A DNA stretch of 15,003 nucleotides from a virus (IMGVR_UViG_2734482594_000016); one strand, 5' to 3'. Counted from the stretch's first letter, positions 88-6,859 are shown. Notes: generated from the letters alone by a model not told the origin. A program made the numbers and translations.

Positions 88-1929
88 TCAACGAATACTG
101 ATGCCGGAAGCCGCTTTTTTGGTCACAATCACCGTACAGTCGGTGATATTGCCTGCCCCCTGATTGCCTTTCTGGAAAATCTTAAACTCCAGAGTGACGC
201 TACCACCACCACTAGGCATATCAATAACTGCACTGTAACTACCGGGAATGGCACCTTTAGTTTCTCTGGATGCGATTAATACGCCGTTTTTGCGAACTTC
301 AAAACCATAACCCGTGTATCGCGTGCCTCCTGGGTTATTTCCGCTCCCCGGATCGTCATACGCTATACCGTTAAAAATAATGGGCGGAATAATAATCTGG
401 CGGTCAAAGTTATGATCATCGCTTATGGTGACTGTAACCGTCCCGTTTGGTGTTTCCGTGTTACCCCACGTACCAGCCTGTTTCGGAAATGATTTGGATA
501 CAGCTTTAACGAAGTCACCTCTGACCTGAGTCGCCTCCAGCATGCCCTTAATCGTACAGTTTTCATTTACCGTGACATTGTTGAGCGTCCCGGCGTTCGC
601 ATTCACACTGCCACTGATATCCGCATTTTTAGCGGTCAGCTTTCCGTCCGGAGTCAGGGAAAATGCCGATGGATTTCCACCGCTGGTAATGGTGGGGGCC
701 GTCAGGCGTTTCAGGAACACGTCGTTCATGAATATCTGATCGCCCTGACCAACAAACATCGGTTTTGTGTTGCCATTCGCAGGATTAACCATCGCAATCC
801 TGTCCGCCGCCAGCAGCACCTGACTCTGCATGCCGTCAGGGGTGTTCTCAATACCGGCACCAATACCCGCGATATAAAGGCGTCCGTCCTGCATCTGCTG
901 CAGCTTCACAGCCCACATGCTGTTCAGGTTATTATTTGTATCAACCTGAACCTTCTGTATCTGCTGAATTGCCGCACTCTGGTCTTCCAGTTTCTTATTG
1001 ACGGTCTGCGTGATTTCATTGCTGACATCCGTAATGGACGTCCTGATTTCAGCCAGGTCAGGCGCAAGCTGACCGTTATCAATCTGCGTCCACAGCTCCT
1101 GAGCCAGATGGGTTTTCCCTATCTCGCCTTTGAAAAAATCCAGATAACCGGATGCATCATCACTCGGCTGACCAACAGCCTCCACGAATGCCGATTTGCC
1201 AACGGTGTTCACACTGCGGATATAAAAGTAATAATCATGGCCCGGTTTGATATTGATACTGGCGGCTATCCAGTACAGCGCCGTGCCAAGATAGCGTGCT
1301 GTGGTTTCAACCTGCCTGATATCCGCAATCCGCTTTTCCGAGAACCAGAACTCAAACTGTACCGTCGGATCATAAACCGCAAGATGCGGCGTGGCGGTTA
1401 TCTGAAAATAGCCCGGCGTCAGCTCAATCCGCGACAGCGCTGCCGGTGCGGCAATCCGGAACGATACCGACGCCGGATCGCCCTGCTGCCCCCACGCATT
1501 TACTGCCCGGACTGTCAGCCTGTAGTTCCCCAGCGCCAGTTGTGTGAAGCGGTAAGTGGTTTCCGTCGTCCGGGCCGTGCTGACCAGCCGCTCACTGCCG
1601 TCATCCGCTGTTACGGTCAGACGGAGCAGGAAGCTCACCCCCTTCACCACCTTCGGCGTGTCCCAGCGCGCCAGCACCTGATATTCCCCGCTGTCTGCGG
1701 TGACTTCGGCAGTCAGGTGCTGCACCGCTGGCGGCGTGACACCATTCACCGTGCCGCTCTGGTCGCCGTCAAAGTGCGCCCCGTTATCCACGATGGCTTC
1801 TTTTTCCGGCACATGCTGCACGGCGGTGATGGCATACGTGCCGTCGTCGTTCTCACGGATACTCACGCAGCGGAACAATCGCTGGTGCAGCGTCGGCAGC
1901 TTCAGCCCCCACACGCTGTATTCAGCAAC
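88..1929 (-). CDS. J: Host specificity / tail tip protein J, C-terminal ~613 aa (variant 2); 5' end lost in the N gap
   Basis: Translation begins [55 protein letters not shown] and continues with fibronectin-like repeats and a distal domain; near-identical to the + strand J over the first ~240 aa, then divergent. Stop codon at 88-90. The rest of the track ORF 88..2328 (X run and the part antisense to I) is not real. Confidence 0.85.
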
Positions 1930-2212
1930 NNNNNNNNNNNNNNNNNNNNNNNNNNNNNNNNNNNNNNNNNNNNNNNNNNNNNNNNNNNNNNNNNNNNNNN
2001 NNNNNNNNNNNNNNNNNNNNNNNNNNNNNNNNNNNNNNNNNNNNNNNNNNNNNNNNNNNNNNNNNNNNNNNNNNNNNNNNNNNNNNNNNNNNNNNNNNNN
2101 NNNNNNNNNNNNNNNNNNNNNNNNNNNNNNNNNNNNNNNNNNNNNNNNNNNNNNNNNNNNNNNNNNNNNNNNNNNNNNNNNNNNNNNNNNNNNNNNNNNN
2201 NNNNNNNNNNNN
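1930..2212. other. Run of 283 N (assembly gap or masked sequence)
   Basis: Directly visible; interrupts both the inverted J fragment and the 5' end of I. Confidence 1.
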
Positions 2213-2654
2213 GTTACATGAGGCTCTGCCTGACGGCGCTGTGATTCATATTGTTCCCAGAGTCGCCGGGGCCAAGTCAGGTGGTGTATTCCAGATTGTC
2301 CTGGGAGCAGCCGCCATTGCCGGATCATTCTTTACCGCCGGAGCCACCCTTGCAGCATGGGGGGCTGCCATTGGTGCCGGTGGTATGACCGGCATTCTGT
2401 TTTCTCTCGGTGCCAGTATGGTGCTCGGCGGTGTGGCTCAGATGCTGGCACCGAAAGCCAGAACTCCCCGCACACAGACAACGGATAACGGTAAGCAGAA
2501 CACCTATTTCTCCTCACTGGATAACATGGTTGCCCAGGGCAATGTTATGCCTGTTCTGTATGGTGAAATGCGCGTGGGGTCACGTGTGGTATCTCAGGAG
2601 ATCAGCACGGCAGACGAAGGGGACGGTGGTCAGGTTGTGGTGATTGGTCGCTGA
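2213..2654 (+). CDS. I: Tail assembly protein I, 3' portion (~146 codons); 5' end in gap
   Basis: Frame is open from the gap edge (LHEALPDGAV IHIVPRVAGAKSGGVFQIVLGAAAIAGSFF...MPVLYGEMRVGSRVVSQEISTADEGDGGQVVVIGR), matching the C-terminal part of lambda I as I remember it. Stop at 2652-2654. The track start at 2241 is a GTG inside the real gene. Confidence 0.85.
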
Positions 2655-2714
2655 TGCAAAATGTTTTATGTGAAATCGCCTCCGGGCGGTTTTATCGTTT
2701 ATGGAGCATGACGA

Positions 2715-4300: not shown

Positions 4301-4559
4301 NNNNNNNNNNNNNNNNNNNNNNNNNNNNNNNNNNNNNNNNNNNNNNNNNNNNNNNNNNNNNNNNNNNNNNNNNNNNNNNNNNNNNNNNNNNNNNNNNNNN
4401 NNNNNNNNNNNNNNNNNNNNNNNNNNNNNNNNNNNNNNNNNNNNNNNNNNNNNNNNNNNNNNNNNNNNNNNNNNNNNNNNNNNNNNNNNNNNNNNNNNNN
4501 NNNNNNNNNNNNNNNNNNNNNNNNNNNNNNNNNNNNNNNNNNNNNNNNNNNNNNNNNNN
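4301..4559. other. Run of 259 N inside J
   Basis: Directly visible. Confidence 1.
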
Positions 4560-5046
4560 AGGTGTGGACCTATAACCGCAGTAATGTGGTGATGCCGGAC
4601 GATGGCGCGCCGTTCCGCTACAGCTTCAGCGCCCTGAAAGACCGCCATAATGCCGTTGAGGTGAACTGGATTGACCCGAACAACGGCTGGGAGACGGCGA
4701 CAGAGCTTGTGGAGGACACGCAGGCCATTGCCCGTTACGGTCGTAACGTCACGAAGATGGATGCCTTTGGCTGTACCAGCCGGGGGCAGGCACACCGCGC
4801 AGGGCTGTGGCTGATTAAAACAGAACTGCTGGAAACGCAGACCGTGGACTTCAGCGTGGGCGCAGAAGGGCTTCGCCATGTGCCGGGCGATGTCATTGAA
4901 ATCTGTGATGATGACTATGCCGGTATCAGCACCGGCGGGCGCGTGCTGGCGGTAAACAGCCAGACCCGGACGCTGACGCTCGACCGTGAAATCACGCTGC
5001 CATCCTCCGGCACCACGCTGATAAGCCTGGTTGACGGTGAGGGTAA
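4560..5046 (+). repeat. Direct repeat copy 2, re-encoding J residues ~369-528 with a few substitutions
   Basis: Encoded peptide [42 protein letters not shown]... versus copy 1 [42 protein letters not shown]... Confidence 0.85.
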
Positions 5047-6859
5047 TCCGGTCAGCGTGGAGGTCCAGTCCGTCACCGACGGCGTGAAGGTAAAAGTGAG
5101 CCGTGTTCCTGACGGTGTTGCTGAATACAGCGTGTGGGGGCTGAAGCTGCCGACGCTGCACCAGCGATTGTTCCGCTGCGTGAGTATCCGTGAGAACGAC
5201 GACGGCACGTATGCCATCACCGCCGTGCAGCATGTGCCGGAAAAAGAAGCCATCGTGGATAACGGGGCGCACTTTGACGGTGATCAGAGCGGCACGGTGA
5301 ATGGTGTCACGCCGCCAGCAGTGCAGCATCTGACCGCCGAAGTCACTGCAGACAGCGGGGAATATCAGGTGCTGGCGCGATGGGACACGCCGAAGGTGGT
5401 GAAGGGCGTGAGCTTCCTGCTTCGCCTGACCGTGGCAGCGGACGACGGCAGTGAGCGGCTGGTCAGCACGGCCCGGACGACGGAAACCACATACCGCTTC
5501 AGGCAACTGGCGCTGGGGAACTACAGGCTGACAGTCCGGGCGGTAAATGCGTGGGGGCAGCAGGGCGATCCGGCGTCGGTACCGTTCCGGATTGCCGCAC
5601 CGGCAGCGCCGTCGCGGATTGAGCTGACGCCGGGCTATTTTCAGATAACCGCCACGCCGCATCTTGCGGTTTACGATCCGACGGTACAGTTTGAGTTCTG
5701 GTTCTCGGAAACGCGGATTACCGATATCAGGCAGGTTGAAACCACAGCCCGCTACCTTGGCACGGGGCTGTACTGGATAGCCGCCAGTATCAATATCAAA
5801 CCGGGCCATGATTATTACTTTTATATCCGCAGTGTGAACACCGTTGGCAAATCGGCATTCGTGGAGGCCGTCGGTCGGGCGAGCGATGATGCGGAAGGTT
5901 ACCTGGATTTTTTCAAAGGCAAGATAACCGAATCCCATCTCGGCAAGGAGCTGCTGGAAAAAGTCGAGCTGACGGAGGATAACGCCAGCAGACTGGAGGA
6001 GTTTTCGAAAGAGTGGAAGGACGCCAACGATAAGTGGAATGCCATGTGGGCTGTCAAAATTGAGCAGACCAAAGACGGCAAACATTATGTCGCGGGTATT
6101 GGCCTCAGCATGGAGGACACGGAGGAAGGCAAACTGAGCCAGTTTCTGGTTGCCGCTAACCGTATCGCGTTTATTGACCCGGCAAACGGGAATGAAACGC
6201 CGATGTTTGTGGCGCAGGGCAACCAGATATTCATGAACGACGTGTTCCTGAAACGCCTGACGGCTCCCACCATTACCAGCGGTGGAAATCCGCCGGCATT
6301 TTCCCTGACACCGGACGGAAAACTGACCGCTAAAAATGCGGATATCAGTGGCAGTGTGAATGCGAACTCCGGGACGCTCAACAATGTCACGATTAATGAG
6401 AACTGTCAGATTAAGGGGAAACTGTCAGCCAATCAGATTGAAGGCGATATTGTCAAAACGGTCAGCAAGTCTTTCCCCCGCACGAACAGTTATGCCAGTG
6501 GCACCATCACGGTAAGAATCAGTGATGATCAGAAATTTGACCGGCAGGTCATGATACCGCCAGTGTTATTCCGCGGTGGTAAGCATGAGAATTTCAACAG
6601 TAATAACCAACAGTCATACTGGTATTCAACCTGCCGGTTAAGAGTGACCCGCAATGGTCAGGAGATTTTTAATCAGTCCACGACGGATGCTCAGGGCGTA
6701 TTTTCCTCAGTTATAGATATGCCTGCCGGACAGGGGACGCTGACACTGACATTCACCGTATCTTCATCAGGAGCGAATAACTGGACACCAACAACCAGTA
6801 TCAGCGATCTGCTGGTTGTGGTGATGAAAAAATCCACAGCAGGTATCAGTATCAGCTGA
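4560..6859 (+). CDS. J: Host specificity / tail tip protein J, C-terminal ~765 aa (variant 1), resuming after the gap
   Basis: Continuous frame to TGA at 6857-6859; includes fibronectin-like repeat region and a distinct distal domain ending ...[49 protein letters not shown]. Joined to 2715-4300 minus the overlap this gives about 1134 aa, lambda-J-sized. The track start at 4562 is not a real start. Confidence 0.9.

Follow-up and report, generated by a model that had tools for sequence, protein, structure and literature searches.

The tail-tip protein gpJ of phage lambda consists of hub domains, the domains FNIII-1 and FNIII-2, a shaft of alpha helices, a beta-sheet prism, and an Ig-like receptor-binding domain (PMC11101478). 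When the fiber gene of phage 434 takes the place of lambda J, the phage switches to OmpC, which is the receptor of 434 (PMC3509688, PMC11101478). OmpC is also required by A8, a natural gpJ variant that Brodel et al. [quoted passage not shown] The Keio ompC knockout does not support plating of phage phi330, and complementation restores it (PMC12502783). LamB is the native receptor of phage 21, which adds OmpC use by one J mutation (PMC11336670), and lambda can gain the use of OmpF (PMC6646904). The specificity region of J (residues 960 to 1132) and the rest of J give strongly discordant trees, a result that Maddamsetti et al. (2018) attributed to frequent recombination (PMC6646904). Here we analyze a 15,003-nt viral sequence (IMGVR_UViG_2734482594_000016; the window in what follows), which is the complete record CXAI01000103.1 of assembly GCA_001249355.1 and which carries pieces of two J genes on opposite strands.

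A preliminary description of the window took the two J pieces, one of them inverted, to be variants with candidate alternative specificities produced by module exchange. We consider it very probable that they are two ordinary J alleles of two different elements that were mis-scaffolded together, that both most likely target OmpC, and that the pattern of shared and divergent blocks comes from recombination in the phage population.

Contig order and origin of the two J pieces

Because the window is an entire record, its positions 1 and 15003 are scaffold ends, and its sequence blocks are contigs that a scaffolder presumably joined. Three runs of N divide it into four blocks (A, 1 to 1929; B, 2213 to 4300; C, 4560 to 7407; and D, 7596 to 15003), and each of the unusual junctions of the scaffold falls within Ns (Table 1). 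Positions 88 to 1929 (minus strand) encode the last 613 residues of one J, which we call variant 1, and positions 4562 to 6859 (plus strand) encode the last 765 residues of another, variant 2. In a draft scaffold with three such gaps, the inverted arrangement is without sequence support. Block A, which ends with the record at window position 1, is collinear with the intact gpJ-lom region of references L001, L010, and L030; lying at the scaffold end, it is a mis-oriented and mis-placed contig.

The overlaps between the blocks show which of them belong together. Positions 7596 to 7906, at the start of block D, are the exact reverse complement of positions 1 to 311 (311 nt, 100% identity) and constitute a third copy of the end of variant 1. 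Reverse-complemented, block A therefore ends in the same 311 nt with which block D begins, an end-to-end overlap of two contigs that was left unmerged, and the perfect identity of this overlap argues that J variant 1 is contiguous with block D. The end of block B and the start of block C share a 478-nt overlap in J coordinates, but since this is only 96.4% identical, B and C cannot adjoin. The end of block C and the start of block D overlap by ~570 nt in gene coordinates with 95.4% identity. With overlaps at 95 to 96%, J and lom would have to be partly duplicated in tandem for the deposited order B-C-D to be real.

References without Ns show the order B, 70 to 79 nt, A in reverse complement, and D. 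These are the Escherichia coli MB56 chromosome (B at 6843 to 8921, A in reverse complement at 9001 to 10928, and D from 10619); JAATUR010000020.1, which is from a different strain, is 96% identical, and was used as a contiguous reference (exact 60-mer scan); and four IMG/VR prophage contigs in which exactly 70 nt separate B from A in reverse complement. Three of these contigs (L030, L029, and L126) match block A at 99.9% and the fourth (L038) at 99.6%, and all four match block B at 99.86%. In the exact 60-mer scan of viral contigs, none of the 120 matched loci contained an N-run. When the 70 nt are added between B and the reverse complement of A, a single J open reading frame of 1165 aa results, which is also the length of J in MB56 and phi458. 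To read variant 1 as an intact J, this reordering of contigs is needed together with 70 nt taken from a reference of 99.9% identity. The scaffold lacks codons 1 to 367 of variant 2; block C is collinear, at 98.0% identity, with the intact 1132-aa gpJ, followed by lom, of E. coli H1. Complete E. coli genomes contain a median of 2 to 3 J-like places, with a maximum of 15, so two alleles in one isolate are the norm.

Based on the N-runs, the overlaps, and the references, the two J pieces are contigs of two different elements rather than alternatives at one locus. In the reading that we prefer, a scaffolder would have threaded the contigs of two co-resident lambdoid elements with near-identical J and lom stretches into one short draft scaffold, putting block C into the slot that belongs to A and parking A at the scaffold end. 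The first element would have the order I, J (block B, ~70 unassembled nt, and the reverse complement of block A), lom, stf, tfa, sopB, and sopA (block D), and its intact J of 1165 residues would combine a long alpha-helical shaft of the phage 21 type with a receptor-binding domain of the phage 434 type. Block C would represent J (residues 368 to 1132) and lom of a second lambdoid prophage, with a lambda-type shaft and a receptor-binding domain of the A8 gpJ/phi330 type. Positions 11800 to 15003 are 100% identical to E. coli plasmid pB16EC0268-3 and 97 to 99.8% identical to several plasmids of 46 to 48 kb, which carry a complete lambda-like head and tail module beside sopAB. From these matches and from its partition genes sopA and sopB, we take block D to be part of an N15-like phage-plasmid.

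Block structure, identity, and receptor of the two alleles

Both pieces are recognizable as J by several measures. Block B joined to the reverse complement of A, and likewise block C, give Pfam domains above the curated cut-offs in the expected J order, that is, the hub (Phage-tail_3, FNIII-A), two Ig/FNIII domains, the tail-tip fiber segment, and the C-terminal Ig_GpJ_C. Searches with phmmer against the lambda gpJ chains in the PDB give E-values of 1e-87 to 1e-215, with variant 1 matches at 1e-88 to 1e-97. The neighborhood also fits a lambda-type J, with I upstream (2213 to 2654) and lom (6926 and 7890), stf (8465), and tfa (11869) downstream, and the order I-J-lom-stf-tfa is likewise found in lambda, 434, MB56, and H1.

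The two variants are 70% identical over 615 columns (BLASTP), and this identity is distributed in blocks. In lambda J coordinates, it is 97% over residues 552 to 805 (the FNIII region), 37% over residues 806 to 905, where variant 1 has ~28 extra residues, 89% over residues 906 to 985, and 41% over the distal domain (residues 986 to 1132). The residue and nucleotide profiles (for the latter, see Table 1) bear out the pattern given in the preliminary description, in which an N-proximal match is followed by a divergent central block, a re-convergence, and a divergent end. In terms of the lambda structure, the central block corresponds to the helical shaft and the top of the prism, the re-converging stretch to the prism, and the last ~150 residues to the receptor-binding domain. 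The distal domains had been called unrelated, but they are homologous and align end to end, and both match PF12421 (Ig_GpJ_C), with 90.4 bits for variant 1 (residues 477 to 612) and 124.9 bits for variant 2 (residues 641 to 765, each counted within its own piece) against a Pfam gathering cut-off of 26.2 bits. The Pfam label of this family is [quoted passage not shown] The observation that neither end is the LamB-binding end of lambda holds, with identities to lambda residues 986 to 1132 of 35% (variant 1) and 41% (variant 2).

Alignment of the distal domains with characterized J receptor-binding domains, a check that the preliminary description had proposed, assigns variant 1 to the 434 type and variant 2 to the A8/phi330 type. 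The distal domain of variant 1 is 95% identical to that of phage 434 J (lambda-equivalent residues 986 to 1132), 99% identical to that of PhiR26_1, and 97% identical to that of phi458, while in its central block it has 97% identity to phage 21, 100% to phi458, and 36 to 37% to lambda and 434. The central block of variant 2 is 99% identical to that of lambda and 100% identical to that of 434. Its distal domain, beta-prism included, is 100% identical to PDB entry 9wca, "A8 gpJ 713" (chain 9wca_J, E = 4.5e-281), and the distal domain is 99% identical to that of phi330 and 82% identical to that of phage 21. The machine-read A8 sequence in the supplement of PMC11338833 is 95.6% identical at the nucleotide level to window positions 6287 to 6859, with 10 gaps that text recognition would explain. 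Neither variant matches the gpJ 1A2 chimera from Brodel et al., which has a third type of distal domain (74 to 80% nucleotide identity over partial stretches of ~120 to 200 nt). Places covering at least 80% of block A occur in ~2,070 and places covering at least 80% of block C in ~3,470 of the 5,426 complete E. coli genomes. Both alleles are ordinary, widespread, and already known.

The panel of characterized phages, which covers most of the possible combinations, shows independent assortment of central block and distal domain: a lambda-type shaft occurs with a lambda, 434-type, or A8-type distal domain, and a phage-21-type shaft occurs with a 21-type or 434-type distal domain. The same is seen among 112 IMG/VR prophage loci that were selected for a 434-type distal domain (shaft tabulation, loci L011 to L130): the central block is long in 76 and of the lambda type in 36. 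The exchange of J modules that the preliminary description deduced had already been reported in PMC6646904, without the shaft being singled out as a second independently assorting module. The panel and the IMG/VR loci show the shaft to be such a module, which is a small addition and a property of the J family rather than of the window. Thus far the idea of module exchange stands, in that J alleles are mosaics of exchangeable modules; it does not stand as an exchange at this locus. The block-wise identity of the two variants is instead best read as the outcome of recombination between lambdoid phages at the population level, with neither a switch nor an exchange in place. As a separate observation, the alpha-helical shaft of J comes in at least two forms, with a length difference of ~28 residues (730 to 1150 versus 5900 to 6232).

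With respect to receptor choice, OmpC is most likely the porin used by both alleles, as predicted from their relatives. For variant 2 the prediction is near-certain because of its 100% identity to A8, and for variant 1 it is strong but not certain because of the 5% divergence from 434. The competing idea, that each distal domain steers the phage to an outer-membrane protein of its own, is improbable, though less so than the alternatives considered below. The two receptor-binding domains are, after all, far apart in sequence, and small changes can shift receptor use in the J family, as with the gain of OmpC by phage 21 (whose domain resembles that of variant 2) or of OmpF by lambda (PMC6646904). 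However, variant 2 is all but indistinguishable from two domains that are experimentally OmpC-dependent, those of A8 and phi330, and variant 1 is close to the classical OmpC-dependent J of 434. Different receptor proteins would be possible only if variant 1 had drifted from the specificity of 434. At the level of the receptor protein, alternative specificities are therefore unlikely, given 95 to 100% identity of both variants to OmpC-dependent domains; the two domains may differ in the OmpC alleles or loops that they accept. The preliminary description had named, as the outcome that would speak against alternative specificities, two ends that are close homologues of one characterized domain with the same receptor. 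The comparison points to the same receptor, but by way of two different characterized domains and not one.

We found no receptor data in the literature for PhiR26_1, Ayreon, mEp460, or phi458, which carry the distal domain of variant 1. A receptor-prediction preprint (10.64898/2026.04.02.716166) was considered as a guide and rejected, as it treats J of Drexlerviridae and related phages and not lambda-type distal domains.

If each J works as does lambda gpJ, from whose structure the following steps are derived (PMC11101478), it would form a trimer at the tail tip, and the loops of its Ig-like domains would insert into the extracellular mouth of the trimeric porin. The splaying caused by binding would be relayed through the prism, the helical shaft would partly refold, the FNIII strings would release, and the hub would open for the exit of DNA. 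Nothing in the window suggests a departure from this mechanism.

Weighing the readings of the arrangement

Several points weigh against mis-scaffolded alleles of two elements that both target OmpC. The mis-join is something that we infer from the variable lengths of the N-runs, the layout, and the references, and it is not proven. Blocks A and B are only 95 to 96% identical to J of the closest phage-plasmid reference; J variant 1 probably belongs to the phage-plasmid, but the scaffold may also have mixed elements at the J/lom boundary. Presumably, both elements were in one cell. On the receptor side, the receptor-binding domain of variant 1 differs from that of 434 at ~5% of positions, and single substitutions can add a receptor in the J family (PMC11336670).

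A real arrangement, in which two co-resident lambdoid elements recombined in their shared J and left an inverted partial J upstream of I together with partial tandem duplications of J and lom, seems to us very unlikely. The several J paralogues per E. coli genome and the long stretches of 95 to 100% identity could support homologous recombination of this kind. However, none of the three novel junctions that it needs is present as sequence, since all of them lie in N-runs, and we see no positive evidence for it. The canonical junction between the reverse complement of block A and block D is backed by the exact end overlap, the references that are 99.9% identical carry the canonical order, and a scaffold of only 15 kb that makes up a complete record is typical of an unresolved repeat. 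The same slight chance attaches to a genuine recombination product of a phage-plasmid J and a chromosomal prophage J, with an inverted partial J and a duplicated J-lom; were it true, module exchange between two OmpC-targeting tail tips would have been caught in the act.

We give practically no weight to a programmed switch of the Mu G or P1 C type, in which the inverted fragment would serve as a silent cassette for alternating the C terminus of the tail tip: an inverted 3' part of a host-range gene does lie near the expressed gene and the copies do differ in the distal domain, but no recombinase or invertase (Gin/Cin family) occurs among open reading frames of at least 120 aa or in a Pfam scan of ten annotated products (the scanned products were those of I, J, lom, stf, tfa, sopB, and sopA, and the other large reading frames overlap these genes in other frames or on the opposite strand), no segment is flanked by short inverted crossover sites (the sole inverted repeats are J paralogy of 837 and 448 nt and contig-end overlap of 311 and 74 nt), the geometry is wrong, since the inverted copy is found upstream of I, on the far side of an N gap, and brings with it 780 nt of constant region, which leaves no way for an inversion to join it in frame with the 5' part of J, and intact genomes carry single uninterrupted J genes of both types.

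The window is above all a warning that paralogous prophage genes may be mistaken for inverted cassettes or alternative exons when a draft scaffold contains N-runs. The biology illustrates once more that lambdoid J proteins are mosaics, with the receptor-binding domain and the alpha-helical shaft swapped among phages. The two distal domains are only 41% identical, yet both are matched to OmpC-dependent relatives, and one of the alleles has a solved structure and is already in use for engineered DNA-delivery particles. The length of the shaft may matter for triggering in J proteins generally, which is not specific to the window.

Surrounding genes and described J proteins

The features of the window are listed in Table 1.

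Table 1. Features of the 15,003-nt window and nucleotide-level blocks of the two J variants
Feature	Position	Strand	Remarks
Block A	1-1929	-	J variant 1 residues 553-1165 (88-1929), J-lom spacer (18-87), first 17 nt of lom (1-17)
Variant 1 receptor-binding domain (Ig_GpJ_C)	88-549	-	Phage 434 type
Variant 1 central block, shaft and top of beta-prism	730-1150	-	Phage-21/phi458 type, ~28 residues longer than in lambda
N-run 1	1930-2212		283 N; scaffold gap, conceals A/B junction
Gene I (tail assembly), 3' part	2213-2654	+	Start of block B; within "tail assembly protein" coding sequence of L001; gene called 2213-2654
J variant 1 residues 1-528, hub and FNIII-A domains	2715-4300	+	Pfam PF24801, PF13550
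N-run 2	4301-4559		259 N; conceals B/C junction
J variant 2 residues 368-1132 of 1132-aa J	4560-6859	+	Pfam domain series; collinear with E. coli H1 gpJ
Variant 2 central block	5900-6232	+	Lambda/434 type
Variant 2 receptor-binding domain (Ig_GpJ_C)	6413-6859	+	A8 gpJ/phi330 type
lom of variant 2 element, cut by gap	6926-7407	+	PF06316 positions 1-160 of 199; 95% identity to second lom
N-run 3	7408-7595		188 N; conceals C/D junction
Start of block D	7596-7906	+	Last 73 codons of J variant 1 (7596-7819), spacer, start of lom; duplicate of 1-311 (reverse complement)
lom of variant 1 element, 3'-truncated by 82-nt deletion	7890-8468	+	Second lom copy, in block D; reference comparison
stf, side tail fiber	8465/8471-11869	+	Pfam PF08400, PF21446, PF07484, PF02413 across stf and tfa
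tfa, tail fiber assembly	11869-12444	+	Pfam, same scan as stf
sopB	12477-13442	-	Partition gene, Pfam
sopA	13442-14608	-	Partition gene, Pfam
Shared block, nucleotide level	Variant 1, 1929 to 1150; variant 2, 5117 to 5900		Mostly 92-100% identity; last two 60-nt windows 78-85%
Divergent central block, nucleotide level	Variant 1, 1150 to 730; variant 2, 5900 to 6232		
Second shared block, nucleotide level	Variant 1, 729 to 550; variant 2, 6233 to 6412		90-97% identity
Divergent distal block, nucleotide level	Variant 1, 549 to 88; variant 2, 6413 to 6859		

Opposite J there are three long antisense open reading frames, at 4169 to 6085 (minus strand, 638 aa), 1108 to 2244 (plus strand, 378 aa), and 3504 to 4133 (minus strand, 209 aa), the last of which is listed as a gene in the public record. 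They cross N-runs or mirror the J frame, and they look like products of J composition and not like genes.

The lom copy in block D has a break at 8419 (window positions 8380 to 8470), where 82 nt that are present in all references examined (L001, L002, L009, and L010) are deleted. The deletion removes the last ~21 codons, the stop, and the spacer, and the reading frame runs into the terminator hairpin and ends at 192 aa instead of 199. The exact truncated Lom protein is found in this contig only, in two samples. The truncated lom is either a real pseudogene or a local assembly error.

The stf product has the Pfam domains phage_tail_N, Gp34_trimer, and Collar. A mechanical reading frame of stf starts at GTG 8465 (MNMAVKISG...), and the start conserved in the references is ATG 8471 (MAVKISG...). 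Between 8900 and 9900, stf contains a long repetitive stretch rich in Ala, Ser, and Thr, with an AT skew of 0.42 and a GC fraction near 0.59, and several long spurious reading frames occur there in other frames and on the opposite strand. The plasmid pB16EC0268-3 (CP088810.1, 81 kb, deposited as circular) contains a head-to-head palindrome centered between two copies of sopA (record positions 61,800 to 67,000). Apparently, a linear N15-like phage-plasmid of ~40 kb with hairpin telomeres was read through its telomere and was assembled as a dimer.

Compared with the described J proteins, variant 1 resembles phi458 J (OP434518), which has the same 1165-aa length, is 98.2% identical over 565 residues, and has an identical central block. 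Phage 434 J (OL657226, UMO75286.1), which confers OmpC dependence, shares with variant 1 the distal domain (95%) and the I-J-lom-stf-tfa context, but it has the short lambda-type central block (37%) and is 1137 aa rather than 1165 aa long. Phage 21 J (OL657228) has a central block like that of variant 1 (97%), whereas its distal domain is only 39% identical to that of variant 1 and is nearer to that of variant 2 (82%). For variant 2, A8 gpJ (PDB 9wca and 9wcb; PMC11338833) is identical from the shaft to the distal region except for a small number of substitutions that lie upstream of the fusion point of the engineered protein. Unlike the natural allele in the window, A8 is a lambda chimera made by engineering, with the fusion at lambda residue 964. 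The J of phi330 (PV189401) shares the distal domain of variant 2 (99%), but its central block (34%) and FNIII region (79%) are different. Lambda gpJ itself (NP_040600; PDB 8IYK, 8XCJ, and 8XCK) has the same domain order as both variants and a shaft 99% identical to that of variant 2, while its distal domain, which binds LamB, is distant from both.

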